Source: an uncultured Candidatus Saccharibacteria bacterium
GTDB taxonomy: Bacteria > Patescibacteriota > Minisyncoccia > Phycocordibacterales > UBA9973
DNA: 64,000 bases
NCBI GenBank assembly: GCA_964591665.1
Contig: CAZQCV010000001.1
Span: forward strand, 178-64,177
Direction of reading: 5' to 3'
In this document: one piece after another, positions 1-15,020 of the stretch
Numbering within the stretch: position 1 is the first letter of the stretch
How the letters are laid out: the number at the start of each line of letters is the position of its first letter
The notes under the pieces: generated by a model
Told to the model about the DNA's origin: nothing
What the model saw: only the letters and a program-made list of their open reading frames with translations
Database searches by the model: none
Program-made: the position numbers and the translations under genes

Positions 1-6
1 AATTGC

Positions 7-1572
7 ATGAAAGAACTCAAACCAAAATATTTTCTATACGCGCGAAAATCCACTGAAGATGACGATCATCAGATAATGTCTATTGAGGCACAACTTTTTG
101 AATTACGAGAATATGCGCGTAGAGAGAATCTTGAAATTCTTGATGAATTTCAAGAGTCGAAAAGTGCAAAGAAACCTGGTCGTGAACTTTTTAATCAAAT
201 GATGGCCCGTATTGAAAATATGGACGGCGTAGGTATTCTCGCGTGGCACCCTGATAGACTTGCTCGCAATAGTGTAGACGGCGGGCGCATCATTTACGCA
301 GTAGACACGACCAAAATAGTTTCTTTGCGATTTCCGACATTTTGGTTTGAGCCAACTCCGCAAGGGAAATTCATGTTGCAGGTGGCTTTCGGACAATCTA
401 AATATTATTCCGATAATCTTGTTGAAAATATTACACGCGGAATCCGCCAAAAAGTGAGACGAGGAGAATGGCTCGTGCGTGCGCCCTTTGGCTATATGAA
501 CAATCCGAAAACGAGAAATATTGAACCTCATCCGACCAAATCTCGTATTGTGGTAAAAGCGTTCGAAGAATATGCTAAAGGGACGCACACTCTCGACTCG
601 ATTTCTCACTTTTTGGCGGATCATGGCGTATCTACAAATGGTAAGCCACCTGCCAAAGCTTCCGTCGCTAAAATGCTCACGAGTCGCGCATATCTCGGAT
701 TTACACATCACAAAGGTGAATGGTATGACGGAAGCTTTGAGCCAATTATTTCTCCGACACTTTTTGAAGCAGTCCAAAAAATGCTTGCGAAAAAATCTCG
801 CCCAGTTAAACGTAAGGAGGCAAATCATTTCCCTTTTTCACAATTTGCAAGATGTGGTGAGTGCGGAAGTATGATTACGGCTCAATATGCCACTAATCGT
901 TTTGGTACTACCTATACATATTATCGTTGCACAAAAAAGAAAGGTGTTTGTCATCAGCCGTATCTATCTTCTTCCGCACTCATTTCGCAAGCAAAACATC
1001 TGCTTCAATCAGTGTCGCTTCCTCTTTCAGAAATTGAGAATATGGAAAAACAAATTGATATATGGGAAAAGGAAACAATTTCCGAAAGAGGAAGTGTTGC
1101 CCAAAATCTTAAAACCAAACTTTCCGAGACGAAGGAGAGATTAGACAAACTCGTTTCTTTATACTTAGACGGAGATATTGAACGAGAAATATATTTGCAC
1201 AAGAAAGATACTCTCCTTCGTCAGAAAGCAAAGTTTGAGGAAAGTTTTAAGGATTTTGAACAACAGAGAAAAAATTGGATCGAACCCTTGCGGAATTTCA
1301 TTTTGTCCTTGAAAGAAGCCATTTATTTGGAAAAAACCGAAAATTATTTAGAATGGAAAACTTTTTTCCAAAAAATCGGCTCTAACCCTGAAATCAAGGA
1401 CAAAACGCTTTCATGCAATTGGGGAGAGCTTTTTGAATTCACGGCTTCCGCCGTAGGCGGAAAGGGTTTGGAAAAATATGATAGCGCGATTTTGGCTCCC
1501 GCAAAATCGCTCCGCATTTCTAATTTTGCCGATGTATCTTTGGGTGGACTCAAGATTCTTTTCTTGGAATAG
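7..1572 (+). CDS. large serine recombinase (resolvase/invertase N-domain + recombinase domain + zinc-ribbon)
   Basis: N-terminal YARKSTEDDDHQIMSIEAQ matches the catalytic Ser motif of the resolvase family. The central recombinase domain and the Cys cluster CGECGS...YYRC (zinc ribbon) are typical of large serine recombinases. Confidence 0.85.
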   Translation: MKELKPKYFLYARKSTEDDDHQIMSIEAQLFELREYARRENLEILDEFQESKSAKKPGRELFNQMMARIENMDGVGILAWHPDRLARNSVDGGRIIYAVDTTKIVSLRFPTFWFEPTPQGKFMLQVAFGQSKYYSDNLVENITRGIRQKVRRGEWLVRAPFGYMNNPKTRNIEPHPTKSRIVVKAFEEYAKGTHTLDSISHFLADHGVSTNGKPPAKASVAKMLTSRAYLGFTHHKGEWYDGSFEPIISPTLFEAVQKMLAKKSRPVKRKEANHFPFSQFARCGECGSMITAQYATNRFGTTYTYYRCTKKKGVCHQPYLSSSALISQAKHLLQSVSLPLSEIENMEKQIDIWEKETISERGSVAQNLKTKLSETKERLDKLVSLYLDGDIEREIYLHKKDTLLRQKAKFEESFKDFEQQRKNWIEPLRNFILSLKEAIYLEKTENYLEWKTFFQKIGSNPEIKDKTLSCNWGELFEFTASAVGGKGLEKYDSAILAPAKSLRISNFADVSLGGLKILFLE

Positions 1573-1629
1573 ATTTGCGGTAGAACTTGAATATTTGGTG
1601 TATATTTTAAATAAAATATAATAAACTCA

Positions 1630-2334
1630 TTAAGTCCTAATATATTTAACAAACTCTTTGCCCAATTCCGAAATCCTAAAGTGACCATTTCCATTATAAC
1701 TTGTACCCGCATCCTCTTTAAGTAACCCAACACCAACTAAATAATTAAGCTTTTCAAAAGTGTATTCATCATCTTTAAATTTTTCAAATCCTTTCATTTC
1801 ATAAAGTATAAATTGACCATATTGTTTAACATTCAATCCACGTTTTAGTTCGTGAATGAGTTGTTCAGGACTATATACGCCTCCTTTCTGTAACCATTTT
1901 TCGACAGTTCCATCAATCCAGATTTTTACAATTTCTATATCTTCGACAGAGACTATGCTTAAAATATTTGATATTTTTTCTAGTTCAAAATTTTCTTTAT
2001 CTTGGCTATCTATAAAACCCAGCAATATTCCTAATATTGCCTCTCTTTTTTTGTCGTTTCTTTCATTTAAATATTGTTGAAATGAAAATATAAAAGCTTC
2101 TTGAACTTGTTCATTTTGAAGTGTTTTACCTGTGAATTTATCAACATTCGTTGCTATATGTTTAAAAAACTCATTTGAGCGTTTTTCTTTAACTTTGACA
2201 ATCCCACCAAATATGGACTTACAGACAACATACAGGGCTTGTGCCTCAAGTGGTAAAGAATTCCAAACAAGCAACTCAGTTGAGTTGATCGTAAGATCTT
2301 TACTTATATTGACTGCAATTTGATTAAGATCCAT
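1630..2334 (-). CDS. hypothetical protein (third gene of an AT-rich 3-gene operon)
   Basis: 234-aa ORF on the same strand as the two upstream ORFs, with a 10-nt overlap onto the 2324..2830 ORF. No motif recognised. Very AT-rich codon usage compared with the core genes. Confidence 0.5.
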   Translation of the reverse strand: MDLNQIAVNISKDLTINSTELLVWNSLPLEAQALYVVCKSIFGGIVKVKEKRSNEFFKHIATNVDKFTGKTLQNEQVQEAFIFSFQQYLNERNDKKREAILGILLGFIDSQDKENFELEKISNILSIVSVEDIEIVKIWIDGTVEKWLQKGGVYSPEQLIHELKRGLNVKQYGQFILYEMKGFEKFKDDEYTFEKLNYLVGVGLLKEDAGTSYNGNGHFRISELGKEFVKYIRT

Positions 2335-2830
2335 GATTATTTTCTTTATTCCATATTTCTAAAAAGTCATTAATATCAGAATGAATATTTAACTCTACTG
2401 ATTTAACTTCTGGTTTATCTGTATCTTTCTGTTCTTCATTATAAAACAAATACATTACTTTTTTAAAATTCTCTGAAACTTTATATAACATAAAATTATA
2501 TTTAATTTTTTTATTAAAAACTAAATCATTCCAGTCATGGGCAAAGACATTTCTGGGAATTTTTATATTTTTACTCTGTGACTTGTTTTTCTCAGTTATA
2601 TAGTAATAACTTGAAAGTTTTATATATAATAATTGAATATTTAATTCTAATTGTATCATATCCTGATTGGTCTGAAACAAATCCATTATAGTAAAATGAT
2701 TAATATATGAATTCGTTGAACTTAAAGAAGTATTTGTCAATTTAAAGAATAGTTCCCTTCCTTCAGTTATGAAAGAAACTAAATGTGCAATTTCTTGTTC
2801 CAGTCTTTTTTTATTTTTTAATCCAATCAT
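2324..2830 (-). CDS. hypothetical protein (middle gene of the 3-gene operon)
   Basis: 168-aa ORF lying 18 nt downstream of the 590-aa ORF and overlapping the next gene by 11 nt, which suggests translational coupling. No recognisable domain. Confidence 0.45.
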   Translation of the reverse strand: MIGLKNKKRLEQEIAHLVSFITEGRELFFKLTNTSLSSTNSYINHFTIMDLFQTNQDMIQLELNIQLLYIKLSSYYYITEKNKSQSKNIKIPRNVFAHDWNDLVFNKKIKYNFMLYKVSENFKKVMYLFYNEEQKDTDKPEVKSVELNIHSDINDFLEIWNKENNHGS

Positions 2831-2848
2831 TATGTTAGTTTGCTTATT

Positions 2849-4621
2849 TTAATCAATATGCTTACCAAAAACCGATTTATTTGAGAAGAAATTGGAAAAG
2901 TCTTTATTTTTTATAATCGGGTCTTTCTTTGTTTTATTAAAGACATATTCAGATAAACCATATGAGACACTATGGAACTTCGCCCTTTTAGTTATTGAAA
3001 TCCAATCTTTTGCAAATTCTTTTAATGCTGTACCTGAATCTTTTGGATCAAACAAACTCCATAATGTCTCCATATCATCCAAACACATAAATAAAGGAGG
3101 GTTATCTTGTAGATGTGTGAGGTTTTTTTGTACAATGTGTGTATTGTAGAAATCATTAAAATTATTAAATAATTCATCATCACCCAAGATATTTTCAGTT
3201 ACTAAAATTGGAATAATAGTTTTACCTTCAATTTGGTTATTTTCTATATACTGATTTAGCTTAAGCAACTTTCCTTTTTCTTTTTTCACGACTCTTGCAA
3301 GTGGATCATTTCTTCCTTCATTAAATAAAATAAGATATGCATCTTTAAGAAACTCCTCACAACTTGTATTATAAATTGAAGGTAAGCGATAATATTCAGT
3401 GGTAAATTCTATTATAAAAACAACATCATCTTGTATAATAACGGCATCTGCTCCAGAAGTTGCTCCAATCTGTATCTTGGATCCTTTGAAAATATTTTCA
3501 GTTAAAAATTGAAAATATTTCTCCATTAAACGTCCATACGATGATTTGAAACTTCGCAATTCACCTTTACTTTTTATACGCCAAAGCAATCCGCCACAAA
3601 CATTTTCAATAAGAAATTTTAAGTCAGTAATACAATATAAACCATCAGACATTTTAAAAATTGGATTATCAAAAAAAATTCTTATATTTTTATTAAATCC
3701 ATCTATTATATATTCTCTCTCTTCTTCTTCTAATATTGAAGTTTTAAGAGATTGAATATCTTTAGAGAGTATATCTATAATCCTCATAAAAGATGGATCT
3801 TTTTCAAAAAGCTCAGAACGAATATAGAATGAATCAGGATTTCTCCAATCAAATCCAAGTTTATCTTGACCATCAGGAAGTTGTATCTTGTCAGAAGTTG
3901 ATGGAATTTCTAAAAACCATATATATAAACCATGCAAAACTTTCATATATTCTGCAAGGGTAACACCTTCTTTCTCTTCAAAACTAGTAATACCTTTTTG
4001 TATTGTCTCTTTATCATGCTCCTCTAACTCAAGCAAGAGAGCTTCATAGCAATAAGCATAGCGTCTTATTCTACGTTTATAAATCATTGTCGAGACTTCG
4101 GGTAGATAGTAGTGTGGCCATTCTCTTATAAAATAATCTCTGAGAAACTTACCATTTTTATAATCTTGTTCTTTCTCCTCAATAGTAGTAATACTATTAG
4201 TTAGTAGCAATGCTTCAGAATATTTTTTCTGATTAGCAACGTGACTTTGCCCAATAAGCATCTGTGTACCAAATCTATCTTGTGAAATAACCTTAGTGAT
4301 AAGATTAAGTAAACTTTCTCTATGAAATAAGACTTTATGTGATAAATCTCTTTCGCCTTTTCGTAAAACATTGGATTCATACAGTAATCCAGCACCTTTT
4401 TCAATAGTTACTTCCGTTATAGAAGTCTGACATATCATATTAAGAAAACAACTAAATTGTATAAGTTGAGTAGGATCTATATTACTTAGAAGATATATTA
4501 TTTGTGTTTCAAAATCTGTCTCTGATTTTAAAATATCAATTGGAAATGTAATACCACCTTTTTCAAAAGTTTTAAATATTTCAGAATAATGAAGATAGGT
4601 AACTAATTTAGTTTCGCTCAT
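2849..4621 (-). CDS. hypothetical large protein (590 aa), possible degenerate PD-(D/E)xK-like segment
   Basis: Long uninterrupted ORF and first gene of the operon. The segment GADAVIIQDDVVFIIEFT weakly resembles a restriction-endonuclease-fold core (D...D/ExK) but has no Lys. Nothing else recognised. Confidence 0.5.
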   Translation of the reverse strand: MSETKLVTYLHYSEIFKTFEKGGITFPIDILKSETDFETQIIYLLSNIDPTQLIQFSCFLNMICQTSITEVTIEKGAGLLYESNVLRKGERDLSHKVLFHRESLLNLITKVISQDRFGTQMLIGQSHVANQKKYSEALLLTNSITTIEEKEQDYKNGKFLRDYFIREWPHYYLPEVSTMIYKRRIRRYAYCYEALLLELEEHDKETIQKGITSFEEKEGVTLAEYMKVLHGLYIWFLEIPSTSDKIQLPDGQDKLGFDWRNPDSFYIRSELFEKDPSFMRIIDILSKDIQSLKTSILEEEEREYIIDGFNKNIRIFFDNPIFKMSDGLYCITDLKFLIENVCGGLLWRIKSKGELRSFKSSYGRLMEKYFQFLTENIFKGSKIQIGATSGADAVIIQDDVVFIIEFTTEYYRLPSIYNTSCEEFLKDAYLILFNEGRNDPLARVVKKEKGKLLKLNQYIENNQIEGKTIIPILVTENILGDDELFNNFNDFYNTHIVQKNLTHLQDNPPLFMCLDDMETLWSLFDPKDSGTALKEFAKDWISITKRAKFHSVSYGLSEYVFNKTKKDPIIKNKDFSNFFSNKSVFGKHID

Positions 4622-4751
4622 ACGCTCTCATATAATACCATTTATACTTAAACTAATCCTAAACTAAGCAATAGATTTAATCTCAACTTTTTCAACAATT
4701 TTGAACATAGCAAGATCTCAAATCCTAGCTTTTCTTAGCACCCCTAAACTA

Positions 4752-5221
4752 TCAAACCTCTTTATTTTCAACATTTTTGACATATTTCTCTATGCTATGG
4801 TGCTTTATAACTGAACGCTCCCTTCCATCTCGTAAAACCTCTTGTACAAGCCTAGGAATGGTCTTAGGAAAGGTGGTAGATAAGGTAGAATATCCATATT
4901 TATAGCGTGTTGGTGTATACCAGCGTATAAGGAAGATAAGTGGTAATCCTGTCTTTCTAAGCGTATCTAAGCCTTGTACAAAGGTGGTAATAGGATCAAG
5001 GAGCATATAGGAATACTACAAGGTACGAGAATACAATCTATACCCTCTTCTACTGTCGGATTATTATAGCTTTCAGCATATGTTCGATCTGGATCATCTT
5101 TGTATTGTTCATAAAGGCTGAGATCTATGCTGATGTTGTTATATCCTTCTTTGTGAAGAAGTTGGATGGCATCGTGGAAAGAGTCTTCGTTATTTTCGAG
5201 TTCAATGTTGAGAGGTTTCAT
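4752..5221 (-). pseudogene. probable frameshifted gene remnant (two overlapping 84-aa ORFs in different frames on the same strand)
   Basis: ORFs 4967..5221 and 4752..5006 are collinear on the minus strand and overlap by 40 nt in different frames, consistent with one ~150-aa gene broken by a frameshift. Product unknown. Confidence 0.3.
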
Positions 5222-5255
5222 GAGCTCGTTCCTAAATACTAAAGCACTTATAAAA

Positions 5256-6140
5256 TTAGTAACATTGAGTCCTTAAATCACCAACCACCGTTTTACTAGT
5301 TGTACAATCTAGAGAATACAAAGAAGGTATTGAAGAAGGCGGTGTTGCAACAGGGGTGACTGTTGGTAACTTACTGGATGAACTATAATGACTTGATAAA
5401 CCAGCCATTATTCCATCTTTAGTAGTTTTCATTTTTCTTGAAGCAACAGACCATTCTTGACTTAATGCAGTTAATTTGGACAGTTGGTCTTTGTATGACT
5501 GTATTTTTTGTTTTTGAATCTCTAGTTGCTCAATACTATTAATTTTATGTAAGTCATTAGTAAAATATGCCTGTTCAGTTTTTAATCTAGATAGCTCAGC
5601 TTGAATAAACTTTCTTGCCTTTATTTCATCTTTGTAAAAATCTATTTGTTGCTGGTCTATTTTAGTAATATAATCCATTAAATAAATAGAATTTGGGTCT
5701 CCTTTTTTAAAACCCTCTGAGAGATTGATATTATCCTCAAGATCTAAGATTTGCCGTTCCGTAGAATCAATGAAAAGACCTTCCAACGATTGCTGAGTAT
5801 TATAACTTATGATTTGTTTCGTGAAGAGATTAATTACTTCGTTACGATAGTTTGCTACGTCATCTGATTCTTTTTTCTCTAAACCTGCATTTTGAATTGG
5901 CAAATTTGTTTTATTCTTGGATGGTTTTATCACAGCAGATTCTTTAACAGGAACCTCTGAAATAATTTCTTTTTGATTAATGATTTTAGTTGATTCTTGG
6001 TTACTTTGAACTTGTGTAGTTTTTCTAAAAAACATATTTGGAAACCATGTAAAAGGATTCCACCATGAAGCAAAAACAAACTGAGGAATAAAAACTAAGA
6101 GCGTGACAACTAATGAGAATAAATATTTTTTGTTTTTCAT
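5256..6140 (-). CDS. secreted or membrane-anchored coiled-coil protein with Ser/Thr/Pro-rich C-terminus
   Basis: N-terminal hydrophobic segment LFSLVVTLLVFIPQFVFA (signal or anchor), a long heptad-like Q/E/K-rich middle, and a C-terminal SSSSKLPTVTPVATPPSS tract. Confidence 0.5.
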   Translation of the reverse strand: MKNKKYLFSLVVTLLVFIPQFVFASWWNPFTWFPNMFFRKTTQVQSNQESTKIINQKEIISEVPVKESAVIKPSKNKTNLPIQNAGLEKKESDDVANYRNEVINLFTKQIISYNTQQSLEGLFIDSTERQILDLEDNINLSEGFKKGDPNSIYLMDYITKIDQQQIDFYKDEIKARKFIQAELSRLKTEQAYFTNDLHKINSIEQLEIQKQKIQSYKDQLSKLTALSQEWSVASRKMKTTKDGIMAGLSSHYSSSSKLPTVTPVATPPSSIPSLYSLDCTTSKTVVGDLRTQCY

Positions 6141-6230
6141 AATAAGTCACTGGTTTTAATTAGTAAAATGCAAAAAGCCCACCACATAAGGGATGATAGC
6201 TTTCGCTACCCATACACCTTTCGATGTACG

Positions 6231-6279
6231 ACCAGTGACGGAAGCCCCCTATGATGATGGGTTCTTTACACGTCACTGG
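6231..6279. other. perfect 9-bp inverted repeat (CCAGTGACG...CGTCACTGG) forming a stem-loop in the relatively GC-rich divergent intergenic region
   Basis: Read directly: ccagtgacg at 6231-6239 and cgtcactgg at 6271-6279 with a 31-nt loop. It sits in a local GC-rich patch within an otherwise AT-rich spacer. Confidence 0.3.
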
Positions 6280-6400
6280 ATTTTTCACCATGCCTCTATT
6301 ACTAAAGGTTTAGGCTACTACTTATTTGGTTGTAAGGATATTATATAAAAATTACCTTTAAAAAGAAAGCTTTTTAAGCTTAAAATAGACACTTTCTAAC

Positions 6401-6429
6401 TTGACAAAAAGGCAATTATAGTATATAAT
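6401..6429 (+). promoter_or_regulatory. consensus sigma70-type promoter (TTGACA-17nt-TATAAT)
   Basis: TTGACA at 6401-6406, a 17-nt spacer, and TATAAT at 6424-6429, about 40 nt upstream of the helicase start codon at 6468. Confidence 0.5.
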
Positions 6430-6467
6430 ATAGCAAACCAACAATTTACAAAAGAAAATAAAATTAT

Positions 6468-8456
6468 ATGTATACAGAAACTCTTAATTCACAGATTAAG
6501 CCAGTCCCCTTTCAACTTTATGATTACCAAAAACCAATCGTAAAGAAAGCCTTAGATACTATTCTTAAAGGAGAAAACGGATTGATAGTACAGCCAACTG
6601 GAACCGGTAAGACGGTGGAAGCGGCCTTTATAGCTCGTGCATGTATCCTTCTTCATAAAAAAAGAGGTTTATATGTTTACGATGCTAATGATGGGCTCGA
6701 ACAAGCCCGAAAAAAGTTCGAAGAGATATTCAATGGTAATGATATTTCCTGTGCTAATTTCTTTGGCTATGGAAAAGAAGACCATGTGCGTACTGCTAAT
6801 ATCGTATTTGCTTCGTATCAATCACTAAATCACTATAAGGAAAAAGCGTACAAAACGTTTGATCCAACTCATTTTGATTTTATCATTGTCAACGAAGCAC
6901 ACCACGGTGAAGCAGTTACCTACAAAGAAGTCATTCAACACTTTACCTGTCCTAAAATTGGTATGACTGCAGTACCTGAGCGACAAGACGGAAAAGACAT
7001 ACTTAACATATTCGATAAGATTATCCATGAGATACTTTTTGAAGAAGCTTTAGTAAAAGGTTGGATTGCACAAATAGAATATCATGTTCTATCGAGCGGT
7101 CTTTCAACCCAAAACCTAAAAGCAATATGTGAAGATGTCTTAGAAAAAGGCAAACGAATCACTATTAAACAGCTTAATGAATCAATTTTTGTTGAGAAGT
7201 TAGATAATGAAATCCTTGCCGAGATTCACAAGTATGCGTTTCCTGAAAATCGAGCACCACTTCAAACACTTATTTTTTGTGAAAACATCAGACATGCAGA
7301 ATACATGTTAACCATGTTAAAAGATTACAATAGAAGTGTTGATGTCGTGCATTCGAAAAAAGGTAAAACACATAACCGTAATGCAATCAGAGATTTTAAG
7401 GCAAAAAAGTTTCAGTTCTTGATTTCTGTTGACCAGTTAAATGAAGATATTGATATCCCACAAGTTGAGCTCGGAGTTTTTCTCAGAGCAACAAACTCAA
7501 AAAATATCTGGTATCAACAACTTGGAAGACTACTTCGTAGAACGAAACTTAAACAAAAAGCTATTGTCTTAGACTTTGTTGCAAATATTCAACGCTTAGT
7601 AGCTGTACAGGAATTATCCAAAAGAGTGGAAGAAATGGCAAAACTTCAGAAACCTCTAGTAGAACTATTACCTCTTGAAAAAGATGTAATAAATGTCTCT
7701 GGTGAAGGATTCAGTTTTGACTTCTCAGATTATACAGTTGATATTCTAAAAACCGTTGCTGCGATAAATAAGGGTAGATACTCTACTTATATTGAGGCAA
7801 AGGAAGCTACAGAGAAATTGAAAATCAAAAGTGGTATTGAATATTATGCTAGATATAAAGAAGATCCAGGGCTTCCTAGTGCTCCTAGTTTATTCTATAA
7901 AGATAAAGGTTGGCTAGGATGGGATGATTTTCTAGGAACATTTTATTCTACCTATGAAGAAGTTGTCGAAGCTGTAAGAAAACTGCAGATTAAAGATCAA
8001 ACTGATTATAGGTATCGTTACAAGGAAGATCCTAAACTTCATTCTGCTCCATATCTCTTTTATAAAGACAAGGGTTGGATAGGTTGGCCTGAGTTGTGCA
8101 ATGCACTTAGTGAAAGGAGAAAATTCTACACTTATGCTGAAGCAGTTGAGGTAGTAGCTAATCTTAAAATTAAGGATAGGATTGATTATAACGAGAAGTA
8201 TAAGCAAGATCGTAAACTTCCTCGTAATCCTCACTTTATTTATAAAGATAACGGTTGGATAAATTGGTTGCTATATCTTAGTAAATATTATGAGACCTGT
8301 GAAGAAGCCGCACAAGCAGCTAGAAAACTCAGGATTAAAAGCTCTGATGATTACAGATTACGATATAAAGAGGATGAAAAACTTCCGTGCAATCCAGATA
8401 GCTTCTACAAAAACGAAGGTTGGATAAATTGGCCTAAATTTTTAGGTAGAAAATAA
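6468..8456 (+). CDS. SF2 (DEAD/DEAH-like) helicase with four C-terminal tandem repeats
   Basis: Walker A QPTGTGKT, motif II VNEAHH, motif III TAVPE, motif VI QQLGRLLRR. The C-terminal ~220 aa is four repeats of ~54 aa with the signature Y..YKED.KLP..P..(F/Y)YKD.GWI.W. Confidence 0.8.
   Translation: MYTETLNSQIKPVPFQLYDYQKPIVKKALDTILKGENGLIVQPTGTGKTVEAAFIARACILLHKKRGLYVYDANDGLEQARKKFEEIFNGNDISCANFFGYGKEDHVRTANIVFASYQSLNHYKEKAYKTFDPTHFDFIIVNEAHHGEAVTYKEVIQHFTCPKIGMTAVPERQDGKDILNIFDKIIHEILFEEALVKGWIAQIEYHVLSSGLSTQNLKAICEDVLEKGKRITIKQLNESIFVEKLDNEILAEIHKYAFPENRAPLQTLIFCENIRHAEYMLTMLKDYNRSVDVVHSKKGKTHNRNAIRDFKAKKFQFLISVDQLNEDIDIPQVELGVFLRATNSKNIWYQQLGRLLRRTKLKQKAIVLDFVANIQRLVAVQELSKRVEEMAKLQKPLVELLPLEKDVINVSGEGFSFDFSDYTVDILKTVAAINKGRYSTYIEAKEATEKLKIKSGIEYYARYKEDPGLPSAPSLFYKDKGWLGWDDFLGTFYSTYEEVVEAVRKLQIKDQTDYRYRYKEDPKLHSAPYLFYKDKGWIGWPELCNALSERRKFYTYAEAVEVVANLKIKDRIDYNEKYKQDRKLPRNPHFIYKDNGWINWLLYLSKYYETCEEAAQAARKLRIKSSDDYRLRYKEDEKLPCNPDSFYKNEGWINWPKFLGRK
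7778..8447 (+). repeat. four tandem ~160-nt coding repeats inside the helicase gene
   Basis: Four peptide units beginning YSTYIEAKEA..., YSTYEEVVEA..., FYTYAEAVEV... and YYETCEEAAQ... . Each unit ends in YKDxGWIxW. Confidence 0.6.
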
Positions 8457-8486
8457 TTACAACACTTTTACATTAAATAACTAAAC

Positions 8487-8520
8487 CTGTCTATCTTAAA
8501 TGATAGGCAGTTTTTTATTT
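8487..8520 (+). terminator. rho-independent terminator after the helicase gene
   Basis: Stem ctgtctatc/gataggcag (one G-U pair), loop ttaaat, followed by TTTTTTATTT. Confidence 0.5.
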
Positions 8521-8582
8521 GTATTTTTACTTTATTTATTGTTGCACTGGAAAGCTTCCAAATAAAAAGGTAAAATATAGTT

Positions 8583-9341
8583 ATGAATGAGAAGCTTGTC
8601 GACGGACTCAAAAGACGGTTTGAGACAATAGAAAAGGCCCAATTTCGTGGCAATCAACATATTGCGTATGTAGAGTATTTTACTTTTATATTACAAAATC
8701 CCTTAACAACAACTACTGCTAAAGGCCTTCTACTTCAAGAGGGACATTTCTTAAATAAAAACCTTTTAAGCTATCTTTTTGCAACTTCAGTACTAACGGA
8801 TAATTACTCACTTATTTTAAAGGAGATTGACTATATTCAATCTTATATACAAGAGACGCTTGATGAAAAGAAAAAAGGGAAAGGTATAAAATTAACAGAG
8901 AAAGATGTACGTTCAATTGCAGAAAGAAATAACCAAAAGACTAATGAGCTTGAAAAAGAAACGGACCTGAATTTGTTAAATGTATTTCATCATAAACTCA
9001 TTGATAGATTGCATGGTATGGTAATTAAAATACCTTTAACTTTTTCTAAACTTAGAGGTATAGCTTTAGCGTCAGATCCAAGTAAATTTTATAAACCTGC
9101 AAATGGTTCTGACCGGCTTGAATATTTAAGTAAAATCATACAAAAGAAAGGTATTTCGATATTATCAAGGGATCTTTCTCAAAATGTAGGCAAAAAAAGA
9201 CACATTAACCAGATGATTATAGTAAGTACAGCAATCAAGAATATCAATGAAACCATAAAGAAGAAACTAGGCTTAAAACATAACGTCATTCTAAATAATG
9301 ATGGATATATGCTCAACACAGAAGACTATGATTTTTTGTAA
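8583..9341 (+). CDS. hypothetical protein (252 aa)
   Basis: ORF on the same strand between the helicase and the HTH protein. No recognisable motifs. Confidence 0.45.
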   Translation: MNEKLVDGLKRRFETIEKAQFRGNQHIAYVEYFTFILQNPLTTTTAKGLLLQEGHFLNKNLLSYLFATSVLTDNYSLILKEIDYIQSYIQETLDEKKKGKGIKLTEKDVRSIAERNNQKTNELEKETDLNLLNVFHHKLIDRLHGMVIKIPLTFSKLRGIALASDPSKFYKPANGSDRLEYLSKIIQKKGISILSRDLSQNVGKKRHINQMIIVSTAIKNINETIKKKLGLKHNVILNNDGYMLNTEDYDFL

Positions 9342-9461
9342 GTTAATTTGTAGTTAACGTTAATATCCTCTAAAAAAGCAATTAAAATATCGCTTTTTTT
9401 CTTTTACAAGTTAATAAAAGGCTAATATTTGCTAGAAAAAAAATATGCTTGAATAGAGTAT

Positions 9462-10013
9462 ATGGAGAAATTCAGAGACACAAAAGAAAGAACAGGAAAG
9501 TTTTTCATGAACGACCTAGTGCTGGATAAATATGCACGTTATCTTGGTATTTATGCAACAGGAGTATACATGTCACTTTGCAGACACTTTAACTATGCTA
9601 CAGGAACTTGTTTTCCATCGAAAGAAACGATGGCTCAGAAACTTGGTATCTCAGAAAGAAAAGTTTATGACGCAATAAAGCAATTAAAAGAGCTAAATTT
9701 AATCCAGGTTACTTCCCAAGGAAAGAAAGAGGACGGTTCATATAAAAATAATGTGTATAAATTATTGGATAAATCACATTGGTTGGATCCTTTGTTGTTC
9801 TATGCCGACGGCACAGGAAAACATAAACCGTCAGCACGTGGAGGCAAAACCCATAGGCACCGTATGCCTAATAAGGATACACATAGTAAGGATACAAATA
9901 ATAAGGGAGATATTAACATAGAAAGAACAGGAGAGCCTATAAATCCAATGAAGCAATTTAGAGAGAAGAAAGATGCTCTGGTCAAATCTATAACTATTGA
10001 TTACAATGGATAA
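9462..10013 (+). CDS. helix-turn-helix protein resembling phage/plasmid replication-initiator or replisome-organiser N-terminal domains
   Basis: The pattern ...FPSKETMAQKLGISERKVYDAIKQLKELNLI... is typical of winged-HTH Rep/DnaD-like proteins (HTH_36-like). The C-terminus is basic. Confidence 0.5.
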   Translation: MEKFRDTKERTGKFFMNDLVLDKYARYLGIYATGVYMSLCRHFNYATGTCFPSKETMAQKLGISERKVYDAIKQLKELNLIQVTSQGKKEDGSYKNNVYKLLDKSHWLDPLLFYADGTGKHKPSARGGKTHRHRMPNKDTHSKDTNNKGDINIERTGEPINPMKQFREKKDALVKSITIDYNG

Positions 10014-10218
10014 GCTACATGCCAAATTAATAAACGATGCTGTCTTTGTACCTGAAGAGGGGCAACGTGATTTGGTATGTAGCAATACAAAGTCGTTTCG
10101 TTGTCCCTCTTTGGGTATTAATTCTAATCAAGTCTCGGAAGAAATTGCACTCGATTACTTTGCAGGTATTTTAGTAAAAGCATTCCTTGATAAAAAAGAA
10201 AATGATCACAAACAATAA
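9997..10218 (+). CDS. small hypothetical protein (73 aa), possibly a recombination directionality or accessory factor
   Basis: Short ORF bridging the HTH gene and the recombinase, overlapping both by a few codons. No motif, so it could be spurious. Confidence 0.2.
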   Translation: MITMDKLHAKLINDAVFVPEEGQRDLVCSNTKSFRCPSLGINSNQVSEEIALDYFAGILVKAFLDKKENDHKQ

Positions 10219-11743
10219 TAAGAAAGCAGTACTTTACTGCCGAGTGTCTACTAAAGAGCAGGTTGATGAAGGTAATAGTCTTAGTACACAGGAAAAGACA
10301 TGTAGAGAATACTGCGCTAAAAATGACTATGAGATAGCTAAAGTCTTCTTAGAACAAGGTGAAAGTGCTAAGACTGCTGATCGCACCGAACTTCAAAAGC
10401 TGTTGACTTACTGTGCTGATAAAAAGAATGGCATAAAAGCTATTATCATATACAAAGTAGATCGTCTTTCCCGTAATACCGACGATTACAGTCAAATTAG
10501 GCTTTTCCTGAAGCGTTATGGTGTAGAAATCAAATCTACCTCTGAACACTTCGAAAACAGTCCTGTGGGGCGTTTTATGGAGAATACGATGGCCAACATA
10601 GCACAGTTCGATAACGATGTACGTTCTGAACGCTGTGCTGCAGGAATGATGGAGGCTGTACGAGAAGGTCGTTATGTATGGATGGCTCCTATAGGCTATG
10701 ACAACGTAAAAGTGAACGGTAAATCTACCATAGCTATGAATGAATTTATGGGTTCTTTGATGCGTAAAACTTTTGAACTCATAGCTTCTAATATTCATTC
10801 AACAGAAGAAGTAAGACACCTTATGACCGCAGAAGGTCTATTAAATAAAAAAGGGCAGCCACTTTCAAAAAGTTATTTCTATAGTGTACTTACCAATAAG
10901 TTATATACTGGACGAATCATTAAGTTTGGAGAAGAGCATATGGGTTTATTTGAACCGATCATCTCAGATGAACTATACGACCAAGTACAACGTGTATTAA
11001 AGGGTAAAGGACGGAAACATTCTCAATATCTTACTGACAACCCTGATTTCCCTCTTAAAAGATTAATTACAGATGAGAATGGTAAATTACTTACAGGTAG
11101 TTGGTCTAGAGGTGGTAGACTTAAAAAATATCCTTACTACCGTTTTGGAGATAACAAATCAAGTCACAACAGAGATAAGTTTGAAAAAGCATACATGCAA
11201 TATGTTGATCAGTTTGCTTTTGATCAGAAAAGATTAAGTCGACTGAAAGAATTAGTAAGAGAAAACCTAACAAGAGCAACAATGACTCAACGCAAAGAAG
11301 AAGAAAAACTTAAGAAACAAATAATTGAACTCAAAGAAAGACAATCAAATATCATTAAGAAAAACTTTGATGGTATCATTTCGGACACCGTTCTACAACA
11401 ACAATCAGCAATGATAGAAAAACAGTTACTAGATGCAAATACTTTGCTCATGAGTATGCCTAATACTGAAACAGATTATGATGAAGCATTATTATTCGTA
11501 GAAGAATATCTAAAAAACCCAAGTAAAATATGGAAAGAAGCAAATCTTGATGTAAAAATTAAACTACAATGGTTCCAATTCCCCTCAGGTATCGTGTATA
11601 AAAATAATACTTTTGGAACCACCGAAATGTGCTTATTTTTCAAAGCAAAAGACGCCTTTTCGGCGTCTAAGTCTGCTATGGTGGACCCTACAGGACTCGA
11701 ACCTGCCACCCCATCATTGCAAATGATGTGCTCTACCAGATGA
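10187..11743 (+). CDS. large serine recombinase (integrase), 3' end overlapping tRNA-Ala
   Basis: N-terminal AVLYCRVSTKEQVDEGNSLSTQE is a resolvase catalytic-Ser motif, followed by a recombinase domain and a coiled-coil C-terminal region. The last ~22 codons run antisense through the tRNA-Ala gene. Confidence 0.85.
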   Translation: MIKKKMITNNNKKAVLYCRVSTKEQVDEGNSLSTQEKTCREYCAKNDYEIAKVFLEQGESAKTADRTELQKLLTYCADKKNGIKAIIIYKVDRLSRNTDDYSQIRLFLKRYGVEIKSTSEHFENSPVGRFMENTMANIAQFDNDVRSERCAAGMMEAVREGRYVWMAPIGYDNVKVNGKSTIAMNEFMGSLMRKTFELIASNIHSTEEVRHLMTAEGLLNKKGQPLSKSYFYSVLTNKLYTGRIIKFGEEHMGLFEPIISDELYDQVQRVLKGKGRKHSQYLTDNPDFPLKRLITDENGKLLTGSWSRGGRLKKYPYYRFGDNKSSHNRDKFEKAYMQYVDQFAFDQKRLSRLKELVRENLTRATMTQRKEEEKLKKQIIELKERQSNIIKKNFDGIISDTVLQQQSAMIEKQLLDANTLLMSMPNTETDYDEALLFVEEYLKNPSKIWKEANLDVKIKLQWFQFPSGIVYKNNTFGTTEMCLFFKAKDAFSASKSAMVDPTGLEPATPSLQMMCSTR

Positions 11744-11754
11744 GCTAAGGGCCC
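11679..11754 (-). tRNA. tRNA-Ala (anticodon UGC), CCA encoded
   Basis: The reverse complement folds as a cloverleaf GGGCCCT/TA/GCTC-ATCTGGTA-GAGC/A/CATCA-TTTGCAA-TGATG/GGGTG/GCAGG-TTCGAGT-CCTGT/AGGGTCC/A/CCA. It has the G3:U70 Ala identity pair and a TGC anticodon. Confidence 0.85.
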
Positions 11755-11780
11755 GTACAAGGAATATACTATACTATTTT

Positions 11781-12767
11781 TTATTTCAGTGCAAGACCAA
11801 TCAAGTGGTGTATAAACTCTGGGAGTGTTACGCCTACTGGAGGTAAGGACTTTGGCACCAAAGACTCTTTGGTAAGCCCTGGAAGGTTGTTTACCTCAAG
11901 GAAATAGATCTTACCGTTTTTCCCTACGATGAAATCAGAGCGTGAATAGTGACGCAATCCAAGACCTTTGTGGATACGTTTTGCATAGTCCATAAGCACT
12001 TGTTTTTCTGCTTGACTGAAATTACCAGGAGAAATCTCTTCTGCTTCACCACTGTACTTTGCATCAAAATCAAAAAACGTAGACTTCGTGCGAATTTCAA
12101 TAGGAAGAAACGCGTAGACATCTTGTCCACGAAGGTTATCTGTAACCGCAACAGTTGCTTCTCGTCCTCCAACATATTCTTCTACGAGCACAACACTCTC
12201 ACCGAGGAGTTTCATAAGCACGTCTTGGAGATCGGTTGCAGTCTTAACAATAGAGACACCGATCGATGAACCACTAGTGACTGGTTTAACCACCCATGGA
12301 GGAGAAAGTTTCATCATGGTCTCACGAGTCATAGCGGTGACATAATTAGCAAATGGAACTGCAGTGCTTTCTGTATATTGATCAAGGTGAATATCTTTTG
12401 ATACAAGGATATCAAGTTCACGAGCATACTCTTTTGTTGTCCACTTATCGAGTGCACGTTTAGAAGCTTCAGGATTTGAACCAGTGTATGGAATACCTAT
12501 TGCTTCAAGTATTTGCTGTATCTGACCATCTTCACCAAACTCTCCATGAAGTGCAATGAACGCAACATCTATTTTGTCCACCAGTTGTTCAGGTTGTATC
12601 TCACGTCCTGCATGATGCCAAGTGCCATCTTTGGTGATGAGAACATCTACGGGTGTATACGTATCTTTAAAATGATCATGGAGTACAGACAAAACACTCT
12701 TACCTGTCTCAAGTGAAACAGGATATTCACTACTGATACCTCCACGTATAACACCAACTCGAATCAT
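11781..12767 (-). CDS. ddl: D-alanine--D-alanine ligase
   Basis: MIRVGVIRGGISSEYPVSLETGKSVL... shows the ATP-grasp Ddl architecture, 328 aa. Confidence 0.9.
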   Translation of the reverse strand: MIRVGVIRGGISSEYPVSLETGKSVLSVLHDHFKDTYTPVDVLITKDGTWHHAGREIQPEQLVDKIDVAFIALHGEFGEDGQIQQILEAIGIPYTGSNPEASKRALDKWTTKEYARELDILVSKDIHLDQYTESTAVPFANYVTAMTRETMMKLSPPWVVKPVTSGSSIGVSIVKTATDLQDVLMKLLGESVVLVEEYVGGREATVAVTDNLRGQDVYAFLPIEIRTKSTFFDFDAKYSGEAEEISPGNFSQAEKQVLMDYAKRIHKGLGLRHYSRSDFIVGKNGKIYFLEVNNLPGLTKESLVPKSLPPVGVTLPEFIHHLIGLALK

Positions 12768-12792
12768 ATACGGTTAGTATATCACGGAGGAA

Positions 12793-14016
12793 TTATTTTA
12801 GAAAATTCTTTGCTCGTTTTTCTTTATGAAACGCAATAGCGAAACGGTGTGCTTCAACGTTTGCGAGAAGAATAGCGCGTTTGTGTTTGTTTACGAGCAA
12901 CTGTTCACCAAGTATTTCTCGTGCTTTATGACTATCATCTTTTACCACTGATACTACTGGCACGTTCCATTGGTACCGAGCACTTACTTGTTCTCCTACA
13001 CGTTTCTGCGCTACACCACCGTCAGTAACGATAATATCCGGAATTCCCCATTCTGTGTGCCGTAAACGACGTGAGAGGATCTCTTCAAGCGCACCAGTGT
13101 CGTTACTACCTGACTGTGTCTTTATGATGAATTTCTTATATTCACGAGGCGCAGCTTCACCATCAATCACGACCGTCATAACGCCAACCATATTTTTGCC
13201 ACTCATATGCGCTACATCGTAAGCTTCGATACGAACTCGTGACATGCTTGGATTTGTAAGAAGTTCGTTCTTGATAAGGGAAACATCATTGATATGTTCA
13301 AGAGCAAAGATCTGTCGTTTGTACTCACCTGCTTTTTCAAACGCTTGTGCTTTGGCAGCTTTCATCATTTCTTTTTTGAGTGTTTCCAATATCTTCTTTT
13401 TCTTACCTGCGAAAAAGAGTTCGATGTGCCTAATTCGTTCTTTATATAGTTTTATTGCTTCAATATTTTGTGTGTCAGGTGTGAGTCCAAGTTGTTTATA
13501 AAACTCATAGTTATCTTTTTTGATAGAGTTCTGATCTACAAATGGGAAAATACGGCGAATAATCTTCAGTCCATCACGAATCGCACCGCCACTTGGATAC
13601 GGACCAAAAAGTGACCGTATTGCCATGGTTTTTGTCTTCATTTTAATGTCAACTTCTCTGCCTCGAATAAGAAGCACCTTTGGAATGATTTCATCAGTAA
13701 TAACGACATAGTTGAAGCTCTTATCATCTTTTTCTTTGGTATTGTACTTCGGCTGATGTTTTTTTATGACATTTGCTTCGAGCATAAGTGCTTCAAGTAC
13801 TGAGTCAGTAACTTCATATTTTACAGTGGTTGCCTTGAACACCATATCAACAATATGTGAACCACGTGTATGGATAAGATCAGTAGCGAAATAACTCCGT
13901 ACGCGAGAACGAAGTGACGTTGCTTTACCGATATACAAAATCTCCCGACCTTTCATAAAGAAATATACGCCGGGTTGATCTGGAAGTTTTAGTTTTGTTA
14001 GTCCTTGACTAGTCAT
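12793..14016 (-). CDS. uvrC: excinuclease ABC subunit C, short form lacking the C-terminal (HhH)2 region
   Basis: N-terminal GIY-YIG motif (GVYFFMKGREILYIGKATSLRSRVRSYF) plus the UvrC central and RNaseH-like region. Only 407 aa. Confidence 0.8.
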   Translation of the reverse strand: MTSQGLTKLKLPDQPGVYFFMKGREILYIGKATSLRSRVRSYFATDLIHTRGSHIVDMVFKATTVKYEVTDSVLEALMLEANVIKKHQPKYNTKEKDDKSFNYVVITDEIIPKVLLIRGREVDIKMKTKTMAIRSLFGPYPSGGAIRDGLKIIRRIFPFVDQNSIKKDNYEFYKQLGLTPDTQNIEAIKLYKERIRHIELFFAGKKKKILETLKKEMMKAAKAQAFEKAGEYKRQIFALEHINDVSLIKNELLTNPSMSRVRIEAYDVAHMSGKNMVGVMTVVIDGEAAPREYKKFIIKTQSGSNDTGALEEILSRRLRHTEWGIPDIIVTDGGVAQKRVGEQVSARYQWNVPVVSVVKDDSHKAREILGEQLLVNKHKRAILLANVEAHRFAIAFHKEKRAKNFLK

Positions 14017-14082: not shown

Positions 14083-14376
14083 ATGAAAATCAGATTAATT
14101 AATCCTGACAATATTGACCTAAAACGAGCTCATAAAACCTGGTGGTTTTGGTTTGCAGCAATTTTATCCATCCTATTTTTTTACTTTAAAATAATTCCTA
14201 AAATAAATGGATACTCTGCAGATGAGGTAGCGTGGATTGCAACTTGGGTAGTATTCCTTTACTTTTGCAGTCTTATTTTAGGTATTATCATTGCAGTTAT
14301 ATGCACAATAATAGAGTATGCAGTAAATGGAGAATCTGAGGAAATAATCAAATTCATTCGAGATATTTTTAAATAA
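14083..14376 (+). CDS. small membrane protein (97 aa)
   Basis: Two predicted hydrophobic helices. Hypothetical. Confidence 0.35.
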   Translation: MKIRLINPDNIDLKRAHKTWWFWFAAILSILFFYFKIIPKINGYSADEVAWIATWVVFLYFCSLILGIIIAVICTIIEYAVNGESEEIIKFIRDIFK

Positions 14377-14387
14377 AAACTGAGAAG

Positions 14388-15020
14388 ATGAAACCGAAAC
14401 CATATTTATTTTTGGATTTAGATGAAATGATGTTTGCCACATTGCAACACATGGTTGATTATATTAATAAACGCCATGGAATCAATTCAACTATTCATGA
14501 TCACATTGGTCAAAACGATACTTTAGATAGTGTAATAAAGAGATACAATAAAGACTATAACTTAAGCTGGGGTGAAACATATATGGATGTTGGAATTAAT
14601 TTTCACGCATCTTTAGAAATACACAAAAATGTTCTTCCTATGGAGGGCATGCCTGAAGCTGTTAAACAACTTTCTAAAAAATATCGATTAGTAGTAGTAA
14701 CTGCAAGACAAAAAGCTGGTTATGAAGTTATTCGTTATCTCCTTAACAAACATGTTCCAGGTTGCATCACTCATATACACTGTGTATGGGAACACATAGG
14801 AAACGGACGGTTTAATGAAATCATGTCAAAGAGAAAATTCATTGAAAGTGTTTCTGGAAAGAAAACTGGCTTTATTGATGACTCCGTACACGAAATCAAA
14901 AAACTGATGAGCGTCCTCGACTGCTACCTTTTCGATCCGACAAATTTACATGAATCTGTGCCGGGTATTCCAAACAGAGTACATGGTTGGGACCATATTC
15001 ATAATACTTTTCTCAGATAG
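14388..15020 (+). CDS. HAD-superfamily 5'(3')-deoxyribonucleotidase-like hydrolase
   Basis: N-terminal FLDLDEMMF is HAD motif I (DxDx[TV]). Size and layout resemble NT5C-type deoxyribonucleotidases. Confidence 0.55.
   Translation: MKPKPYLFLDLDEMMFATLQHMVDYINKRHGINSTIHDHIGQNDTLDSVIKRYNKDYNLSWGETYMDVGINFHASLEIHKNVLPMEGMPEAVKQLSKKYRLVVVTARQKAGYEVIRYLLNKHVPGCITHIHCVWEHIGNGRFNEIMSKRKFIESVSGKKTGFIDDSVHEIKKLMSVLDCYLFDPTNLHESVPGIPNRVHGWDHIHNTFLR

Follow-up and report, generated by a model that had tools for sequence, protein, structure and literature searches.

Large serine recombinase (LSR) integrases such as phiC31, Bxb1, A118/LI and TP901-1, as well as TnpX and CcrAB, have catalytic, recombinase, beta-ribbon and coiled-coil domains in a common order, use short attachment cores and are encoded at one end of their elements; to our knowledge, characterised LSRs do not use tRNA genes. 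Insertion at tRNA 3' ends, with the tRNA left intact, is a property of P4-type islands and integrative and conjugative elements (ICEs) with tyrosine integrases, which pile up in tandem and carry variable, often defence-related cargo. In SSV1-type archaeal integrases the attachment site attP lies within int, so that integration into a tRNA partitions the gene, and in the myxophage Mx8 attP lies within intP, so that after integration the gene has a different 3' end and its product a changed activity. Here we analyze a 64,000-nt stretch of DNA (contig CAZQCV010000001.1 of assembly GCA_964591665.1; hereafter the window) with two LSR genes, rec1 and rec2, and conclude that its positions 1-11760 are very probably the part nearest the tRNA of an array of mobile elements that have accumulated at the tRNA-Ala(UGC) 3' end in a genome of the Patescibacteria (Candidate Phyla Radiation, CPR). 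rec2 belongs to a plasmid-like integrative element of 10,137 bp (element A, window 1550-11686), and rec1 belongs to an unrelated LSR element (element B, or the rec1 unit) with the same core (GGTGG) and the same principle of a split recombinase gene.

The two recombinases share with known LSRs the domain order, the fold of full-length integrase-DNA complexes, the short cores and the position of the gene at one end of the element. They are unlike them in targeting tRNA 3' ends rather than protein-coding genes, in their patescibacterial hosts, in an attP core that lies inside the recombinase open reading frame (ORF), with a C-terminus that changes on integration, and, for rec2, in a ribbon without Cys ligands. 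The tRNA 3' end as target, the intact tRNA, the tandem pile-up and the variable, often defence-related cargo are as in P4-type islands and ICEs, but the recombinases here are of the serine class, the identity block covers only 5-15 bp at the extreme 3' end rather than the 3' half of the tRNA, and the integrase gene converges on and overlaps the tRNA. As a functional analogy only, the location of attP in the recombinase ORF, the tRNA target and a gene rebuilt only on excision recall SSV1; however, SSV1 has a tyrosine recombinase, belongs to the archaeal viruses and has a large part of the gene removed, whereas here the last 15-25 codons are exchanged and the ORF stays open through the antisense tRNA. 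Integration also changes the integrase C-terminus in Mx8 IntP, a precedent for state-dependent isoforms, although IntP is a tyrosine recombinase of a single phage, with no antisense-tRNA tail and no family-wide pattern. A literature search of incomplete coverage returned no account of patescibacterial LSR elements at tRNAs, and none of either architecture reported here. What this analysis adds is the precise boundaries of the elements, recombinase genes split across whole families and a conserved two-site architecture in the rec1 family.

Boundaries and tRNA Target of Element A

The contigs and loci compared carry labels (L001, L002 and so on), L001 being an 87.9-kb ENA metagenome contig that contains the window and from which 10 kb of upstream context were read. 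A first-pass annotation of the window, made from its letters alone, had proposed integrated mobile DNA at a tRNA-Ala, which is borne out by a direct repeat of the tRNA end, the intact tRNA and the element boundaries (Table 1). Both LSR ORFs that it listed (7..1572 and 10187..11743, forward strand) are present with Pfam Resolvase and Recombinase domains, and the second does end in the opposite-strand tRNA-Ala (11679..11754, minus), with 65 nt of overlap to the gene predicted by ARAGORN. The interior that it described as AT-rich (1548-10186) has a GC content of 0.315, compared with 0.390 in the remaining window, where the lowest value of any stretch of the same size is 0.373; along the window, the drop in GC is limited to the cargo.

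The direct repeat of the tRNA-Ala 3' end that was predicted exists, as 7 bp at the left end in the window and as 11 bp in L040, a contig from another sample which is 100% identical over the cargo of the rec2 element and 2 kb beyond and which lacks exactly 3,840 bp. L040 carries the full 11-mer CTATGGTGGAC at both element ends, and the attR of the window is identical to the 11-mer of the L040 attL and to that of the attP of L132, a circular relative described below; the left copy in the window is only GGTGGAC because the rec1 unit sits in the repeat. Written in the sense of the tRNA, the far end in L040, with the rec1 unit absent, reads ..AATCTTGA-GTCCACCATAG-AAGACTT.., and the window has ..GTAGG-GTCCACCATAG-CAGACTT.. 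at its tRNA end, an 11-bp direct repeat that includes the last bases of the tRNA. A repeat search of window positions 1-13000 missed it, since the rec1 unit breaks up the left copy. The left core belongs to both elements, GGTGG being the junction on the right of the rec1 unit and GTGGAC the attL of the rec2 element, and the attL/attR identity blocks found overall are 5-15 bp long (GGTGG; GTGGAC; CTATGGTGGAC; 14 bp in L036). A TGGTG at 1595-1599, together with the end of L002 at 1597, was considered as the left boundary and rejected, the real repeat being at 1543-1549; L002 ends there because of a branch in the k=55 assembly graph at the rec1-unit junction (1543+54). The terminator-like hairpin that the element supplies behind the tRNA occurs at the same position in the attL of L040 (with compensatory changes), in L007 and in the circular L132.

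In the mechanism that we propose, element A would have integrated by site-specific recombination, presumably catalyzed by Rec2, within the short core GTGGAC that corresponds to the acceptor 3' end of the tRNA. The attP core lies inside the rec2 ORF, about 23 codons ahead of the native stop, so that integration displaces the codons of the native tail to the distal (left) end of element A (1550-1621), fuses the body of rec2 to antisense-tRNA codons and sets the element-borne hairpin directly behind the tRNA. Excision would restore full-length rec2. The predicted rec2 attP junction of element A is ..AAGTCTGCTATGGTGGACTCAAGATTC.., and a site empty of element A would read ..GATGTATCTTTGGGTGGACCCTACAGGACTCG.. 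with the rec1 unit retained, or ..TAAGTCTTCTATGGTGGACCCTACAGGACTCG.. in the L040 background without it.

Table 1. Features of the tRNA-Ala-proximal array, in window coordinates unless L001 is given.
Feature	Position	Strand	Evidence or remarks
rec1 unit, right-hand part in the window	1..1547	+	whole unit 3,840 bp, L001 7697..11536
rec1, LSR, 521 aa	7..1572	+	Pfam Resolvase, Recombinase, Zn_ribbon_recom
Y arm, 140-bp perfect inverted repeat, covers rec1 codons 468-514	1408..1547		blastn self-match 100%
Left attachment core GGTGGAC	1543..1549		antisense of tRNA-Ala 3' end GTCCACC; alignment of window attR, L040 attL and interrupted window attL
Detached rec2 3' end, encodes SRFFSWNRFAVELEYLVYILNKI and stop	1550..1621	+	rejoined to rec2 on excision (predicted)
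AT-rich cargo ORFs 1630-2334, 2324-2830, 2849-4621, 4752-5006, 4967-5221, 5256-6140	1630..6140	-	
SF2 DNA helicase with four C-terminal INT_rpt	6468..8456	+	Pfam ResIII, Helicase_C, INT_rpt; PHROG_16 'DNA helicase' E 1.5e-62
HTH_36/DnaD-like protein	9462..10013	+	Pfam HTH_36, DnaD_N; PHROGs 'DnaD-like helicase loader', 'replication initiation O-like'
o73, 70 aa, overlaps rec2 start	10006..10218	+	tblastn; immediately 5' of rec2 homologs in the majority of related loci, circular L132 and L130 among them
rec2, LSR, 513 aa from ATG 10202 (ORF opens at TTG 10187)	10202..11743	+	Pfam Resolvase, Recombinase; PDB sequence matches to serine integrases
Terminator-like hairpin, element-supplied, inside rec2 coding sequence	11650..11668	-	terminator scan; 10 nt downstream of tRNA-Ala
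Right attachment core (attR) CTATGGTGGAC	11676..11686		overlaps last 8 nt of tRNA gene
tRNA-Ala(UGC), intact, integration target	11679..11754	-	ARAGORN

The Split rec2 Gene and Its Family

On the membership features tested, rec1 and rec2 are large serine recombinases. Both have the catalytic domain PF00239 (rec1 E 1.5e-22, rec2 E 1.4e-33), with the serine motifs YARKST in rec1 and YCRVST in rec2, and both have PF07508; PF13408 was found in rec1 only, and rec2 has no Pfam zinc-ribbon match and no Cys in that region. Sequence matches in the PDB are to TP901-1, Bxb1 and TnpX. An AlphaFold2 (AF2) model of the circular rec2 relative has a beta-ribbon at residues 287-312 and a long coiled coil at 339-417, and aligns with full-length serine integrase-DNA complexes over about 525 columns (E 5e-20). 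In this native-tail member the model (mean pLDDT 81) has the LSR domain series, then a linker of low confidence where the core falls, and a terminal helix at 495-513. The 518-aa form of the rec2 ORF, with its TTG start, had no exact protein entry in a database look-up because gene callers start at ATG 10202.

The last 19 codons of rec2 (from 11687) are antisense tRNA-Ala sequence past the core, the 65-nt overlap with the tRNA amounting to about 21 codons. Joining position 11686 to position 1550 extends the ORF as ..SAMVDSRFFSWNRFAVELEYLVYILNKI followed by a stop, and this rejoined tail matches the uninterrupted C-termini of homologs that do not adjoin a tRNA in L017 (..QFWNSFAKECDYLVEIL..), L023, L035 and L032 (..VQFWNRFAVECQYL), as well as that of the circular L132. 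The same reconstruction succeeds for the independent elements L011 and L036; 15-mers in L021 and L037 were not counted as attL repeats since joining at them fails to restore the tail motif. The Rec2 tail is predicted on these grounds to exist in two forms, a native one ending in ..VDSRFFSWNRFAVELEYLVYILNKI and a tRNA-encoded one ending in ..VDPTGLEPATPSLQMMCSTR.

All 22 rec2-family loci that have a tRNA, this window counted, place the stop codon of the recombinase within the antisense tRNA. The targets are mostly tRNA-Ala(UGC), with Leu, Tyr, Val, Glu and other Ala isoacceptors also used, and the overlaps range from 30 to 150 nt. A search with rec2 returned about 1,800 homologs at E<=1e-20 among 8,000 candidates scored, and among the best 120 homologs in protein databases approximately 73-80 end in tRNA-antisense peptides and 25-30 in native-type tails. 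The relatives found in GTDB genomes belong mostly to Patescibacteria (Saccharibacteria, Paceibacterota, Vogelbacteria, Adlerbacteria, Dojkabacteria), with a few in Bacteroidota. The first-pass annotation had called the arrangement a classic layout, which does not hold: the integrases are serine and not tyrosine recombinases, and the attachment core lies inside each recombinase ORF, so that the overlap of recombinase and tRNA is a split-gene design which is family-wide and no coincidence. Chimeric C-termini from antisense tRNA, for example ..VDPTGLEPATPSLQMRCSTR and ..GDPTGNRTPITGLKSRCPNR, are a systematic feature of the annotation and occur in most of the database entries examined for the two recombinase families, with about two-thirds of the top 120 rec2 homologs affected.

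Only o73 and rec2 are conserved across rec2-family relatives. The o73 protein, of which 11 homologs were found, yields a poor AF2 model (pLDDT 57) with a single C-terminal helix, and is a candidate directionality or regulatory factor.

The relative L132, a Logan contig of 10,408 bp, has ends that overlap by 30 nt and is regarded as circular because this overlap equals k-1 for a k=31 assembly; among all fetched loci, a terminal overlap of k-1 was found in L132 alone. The contig has no tRNA and encodes a homolog of o73 and a rec2 homolog at 60-61% identity. Its recombinase gene ends as ..aaagaggcatttctgcctctcaagtctg-CTATGGTGGAC-ttcgac.., with the same 11-nt core, preceded by the tRNA-terminator hairpin and followed by the native tail. 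This is the attP configuration predicted from the attL and attR of the window.

The rec1 Unit at This Locus

The rec1 unit starts about 2.3 kb upstream of window position 1 and consists, in order, of an X arm, an HD_4 gene, an EamA (transporter) gene, an X' arm, a core', a Y' arm, rec1 and a Y arm, with the HD_4 and EamA genes assigned by Pfam. At the junction where L040 lacks the unit there is a 5-bp overlap, GGTGG. This precise 3,840-bp indel between identical contigs indicates that rec1 belongs to an independent unit that was inserted or excised very recently; the event was presumably catalyzed by Rec1. Element B, immediately left of element A, would either have inserted in the attL of A or have preceded A at the tRNA.

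As integrated, rec1 ends in eight codons from the neighbouring element and not in its native tail (..GGVIISFARTFF..), which is encoded by an upstream inverted copy. The Y' partner of the Y arm is located at L001 9868..10007 (window -126..13) and contains the rec1 5' leader and start codon, and the HD_4 and EamA genes are enclosed by the X/X' pair (317 bp, 98%). Circularization would create a Y-core-X junction, of which the central X'-core'-Y' is the exact reverse complement. Within X', L001 9834-9863 has a promoter-like TTGGAA-18-TATAAT (10/12 matches, extended -10) on the strand opposite the native-tail codons; this site comes to within 4 nt of the core and is directed into rec1. One 35-nt stretch here thus seems to be coding sequence, promoter and binding arm, and the same applies to the equivalent positions in rec1-family loci. 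An Rfam search of L001 5500-12000 gave no match. Contig breaks at the inverted repeats (L041, L042) were rejected as evidence of inversion, since repeats of k-1 break assemblies anyway.

Architecture of the rec1 Family and the Spare Inverted Site

A search with rec1 gave more than 6,000 homologs at E<=1e-20 among 8,000 candidates scored, many at 60-90% identity, and those that are named come from Patescibacteria lineages. We surveyed the family in four independent genome relatives and 80 loci from a metagenome scan (45-86% identity). The Y'/Y repeat is present in 48 of the 55 evaluable loci, with lengths of 61-221 bp, and identity is 100% in 24 of the 60 repeat pairs recovered; an abutting X/X' pair occurs in 17 loci. 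In 40 loci, no more than a few nt separate the end of the right arm from the 3' end of an antisense tRNA. The split of the recombinase gene is seen in about 40 loci of this family, and the family targets 20 different tRNA species, with a core that matches the 3' end of each. In the first loci examined the stop codon of the recombinase falls in the antisense tRNA (3/3).

Translation continued from rec across Y and the core and on into the inverted copy yields, in nearly all loci, a tail of the form (I/L)(I/L)x(F/V)(A/V)RT(F/Y/H)FE with a stop within 3-10 codons. Furthermore, rec1-type proteins with native tails exist in databases, on short contigs with the arrangement X'c'Y'-rec-YcX on both sides (c, core), as expected for circles or multi-lobed forms. 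This tail conserved across the core, together with the native-tail proteins, leads us to conclude that the rec1 family shares the split-gene principle and has, in addition, a spare inverted site. In the arm adjoining the core, CGAAC is near-invariant and supplies the Arg codon CGA in 36 of 38 sequences; it resembles the T-loop of the antisense tRNA, and its distance from the core is 19 nt in X and 13 nt in the tRNA.

Two loci have arrangements of particular relevance to the spare site. In L072, which shows the opposite arrangement, a tRNA-Ser gene is followed by Y' and then by rec, all co-directional. In L054 (6779-8619), a rec1-family lobe lies between two different, converging tRNA-Leu genes (UAA in sense upstream, CAA-like in antisense downstream), which suggests that both attachment sites can recombine with tRNAs, a reaction that could invert chromosome segments. 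Offered as leads only, these observations would be consistent with a circle that has two functional inverted sites, a formal parallel to the 2-micron plasmid. No inverted-state variant of rec1 was found among near-identical database proteins.

The likeness of the rec1 unit to 2-micron FLP/FRT and to Hin-type segments is at the level of architecture only: an inferred circle with two inverted sites in long, near-perfect inverted repeats, which separate two unique regions, one encoding the recombinase. Unlike those systems, the rec1 unit has a serine recombinase, its repeats overlap both ends of the recombinase gene and one of its sites integrates into tRNAs. Another family member, L048 (1-7309), has three lobes, with a cargo module on each side of the recombinase (methyltransferase/HXXEE on one side, AAA_15/MutH/N6_N4_Mtase on the other); the modules each have their own enclosing pair of inverted repeats, 99% identical, and the similarity between the two kinds of X arm is 80%.

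Cargo of Element A and of Its Relatives

The SF2 helicase and HTH Rep-like protein that the first-pass annotation had noted in the interior were recovered as a ResIII/Helicase_C gene and an HTH_36/DnaD-like gene; the other ORFs are without a family match. The cargo ORFs of the block 1630..6140 had no significant match in Pfam, PHROG or PADLOC, and the block is not conserved in related elements except for weak o294 and o51 matches in L013; the ORF at 5256-6140 has a hydrophobic N-terminus. PADLOC gave generic helicase-core matches only, to the helicase at 6468..8456. The INT_rpt units of this protein ('integrase repeat', PF14882; 7836-8435) correspond to direct DNA repeats about 345 bp apart with 68% identity. 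The HTH_36/DnaD-like protein is the candidate replication initiator of the element, and we read the helicase and this DnaD/O-like initiator as a putative replication module that would act on the excised circle.

The cargo of relatives includes a type I restriction-modification (R-M) system in L036, PIN_12 and DUF4209 in L011, HEPN_AbiV in L132 and a type III res-like helicase in L007, L010, L016 and L032. No relaxase, coupling protein or mating-pore gene was detected in window 1550-10200 with Pfam and PHROG, and this copy of element A is not an ICE; some family members may be transferable, given that the cargo of L130 includes ArdC and a weak TrwB-like match.

Occupants of the tRNA-Ala Site

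The genes ddl (11781-12767) and uvrC adjoin tRNA-Ala(UGC), and other Patescibacteria share this synteny, which is also found in L010, L013, L022, L024, L037, L043 and L044. We read 24 ddl-bearing contigs, representing 7 distinct places, and found no empty site among them. The full layout of element A is present in 18 (L003 and similar), and part of it, up to the end of the contig, in L004 and L006; L005, L008 and L009 end inside the tRNA, and L007 holds a different, decayed relative. In L007, which is from the same species (ddl 100% identical), the same tRNA-Ala site is occupied by a truncated rec2-like gene with other cargo, a different element shortened by deletion. At L007 3553-4065 the tRNA-Ala ends in ..CCT and not in ..CCA, and is followed by a 162-aa rec2-like remnant fused to cargo like that of L010, L016 and L032. 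Past attL, about 70 nt remain from the 3' end of an older rec2-like gene, together with a hairpin belonging to it, as the scar of an earlier occupant. The tRNA-Ala site has evidently been hit repeatedly.

Alternative Explanations

The first-pass annotation had offered a nested or tandem pair of elements, or an element with a separate resolvase, to account for the two recombinases. The tandem pair stands. A single composite element, with one recombinase as integrase, the other as resolvase or invertase and the true left end upstream of the window, is hardly credible: rec1 and rec2 share a strand and are separated by only about 8.6 kb, and the long inverted repeats that flank rec1 are like those of an invertase cassette, but L040 has a complete, identical rec2 element precisely without the rec1 unit, rec1 relatives occur alone at many tRNAs without a rec2-type gene and rec2 relatives without rec1, and the detached rec2 tail at 1550-1621 marks an element end inside the window. 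Positions 1 to 11760 are not a single element, and a separate resolvase role for either gene is not supported. The earlier proposal of a left boundary upstream of the window is partly right, since the array does extend upstream whereas the left end of the rec2 element is inside (1543-1549). A prophage or phage satellite integrated at the tRNA could be imagined from the PHROG matches to a phage-type helicase and to O-like and DnaD-like initiators, as LSRs are common phage integrases. However, no virion structural, packaging or lysis gene (capsid, terminase, portal, tail or lysis family) was found in any cargo ORF with Pfam and PHROG, rec1 and rec2 have no relatives in 2.9 million viral contigs, and their relatives carry R-M, PIN, HEPN or TrwB/ArdC-type genes instead of virion genes, all of which make a viral origin very unlikely.

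Decay has clearly occurred at the locus, as seen from the remnant of about 70 nt and the truncated gene of L007, and neither an empty site nor a circle was found for the exact element. Nonetheless, it is unlikely that element A itself is an immobile island whose recombinase lost its stop region on integration, overlaps the tRNA by accident and is now inert, given that all element ORFs are intact, including a detached 24-codon tail that matches the family motif, that every tRNA-associated relative has the same split across phylum-level diversity, that a circular relative exists and that the precise presence or absence of the rec1 unit in 100%-identical contigs points to very recent activity at the site. 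For the rec1 unit only, the inverted repeats might constitute a phase-variation switch, an invertible recombinase cassette rather than a mobile element. The Y'/Y repeats are long, often perfect, and flank the recombinase body, the rec lobe of L072 is reversed relative to the tRNA, and an outward/inward promoter-like site abuts the core. We regard a switch of this kind as rather unlikely, since the unit in its entirety forms a precise indel, family members occupy 20 different tRNAs and their core matches the 3' end of each, native-tail, circle-like contigs exist, and near-identical database entries include no inverted-state variant. Inversion and mobility of the unit are not mutually exclusive.

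We therefore favor an array of two distinct LSR elements with split recombinase genes at tRNA-Ala, against which several points weigh. Neither an empty tRNA-Ala site nor a circular junction was found for the exact element A, in a scan of genome contigs for the predicted attB pattern and a scan of viral contigs for attP. The identity blocks span 5-15 bp and do not single out an exact crossover dinucleotide. The conservation of the rec1 tail overlaps the CGAAC DNA motif and the promoter-like sequence and is not creditable to selection at the protein level alone. The helicase and the initiator could be defence or cargo genes instead of a replication module, and we infer, rather than observe, any effect of the tail swap on recombinase activity or directionality.

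Possible Regulatory Role and Implications

The split recombinase gene may possibly serve as a built-in sensor of state, with the tail swap or the inverted site as a regulatory switch, an idea that we put forward tentatively. In such a scheme the excised circle would make a full-length enzyme with the native helix, competent for integration, and the integrated element would make an antisense-tRNA-tailed isoform that differs in activity or directionality. It would then be the DNA configuration itself that determines directionality, wholly or partly without a classical excisionase. In the rec1 family, the spare site, with its promoter and native-tail codons, would let the recombinase lobe flip or integrate either way, and would toggle between state A, in which a truncated gene converges on the tRNA, and state B, with a native gene driven by the tRNA promoter, as in L072. 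The CGAAC motif would mimic the tRNA T-loop and allow one enzyme family to use any tRNA.

These elements are abundant integrative elements in Patescibacteria, a phylum for which the literature searched has little on mobile elements. They provide serine integrases that act at tRNA 3' ends, with at least 20 tRNA species in one family and a core that apparently co-varies, which is relevant to integrase engineering, and their chimeric antisense-tRNA C-termini affect the annotation, clustering and mining of LSRs with their attachment sites. The state-dependent isoforms and the architecture with two inverted sites offer testable ideas on how the directionality and expression of serine integrases may be controlled. 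Moreover, the variable defence-type cargo (R-M, PIN, HEPN/AbiV) suggests that the elements are likely vehicles of defence-gene exchange among ultra-small bacteria.

Neighbouring Genes

Approximately 2.7-3.9 kb upstream of the window (L001 6068-7294) is a gene for a 408-aa reverse transcriptase, for which the best PADLOC match is the defence-associated RT_UG17 (E 5.6e-39), adjoined by a Y-family polymerase (IMS) and an S24 peptidase. A non-coding stretch of about 400 bp upstream of the reverse transcriptase gene (L001 7295-7690) had no Rfam match. This block of reverse transcriptase, polymerase and S24 genes looks like an older island beyond both elements. Downstream of the tRNA, an AT-rich patch (GC 0.33) between uvrC and uvrA at window 14083-15020 contains ORFs of 97 aa (hydrophobic) and 210 aa without a family match, and the same position in the relatives L043 and L044 is occupied by a single 129-aa ORF.

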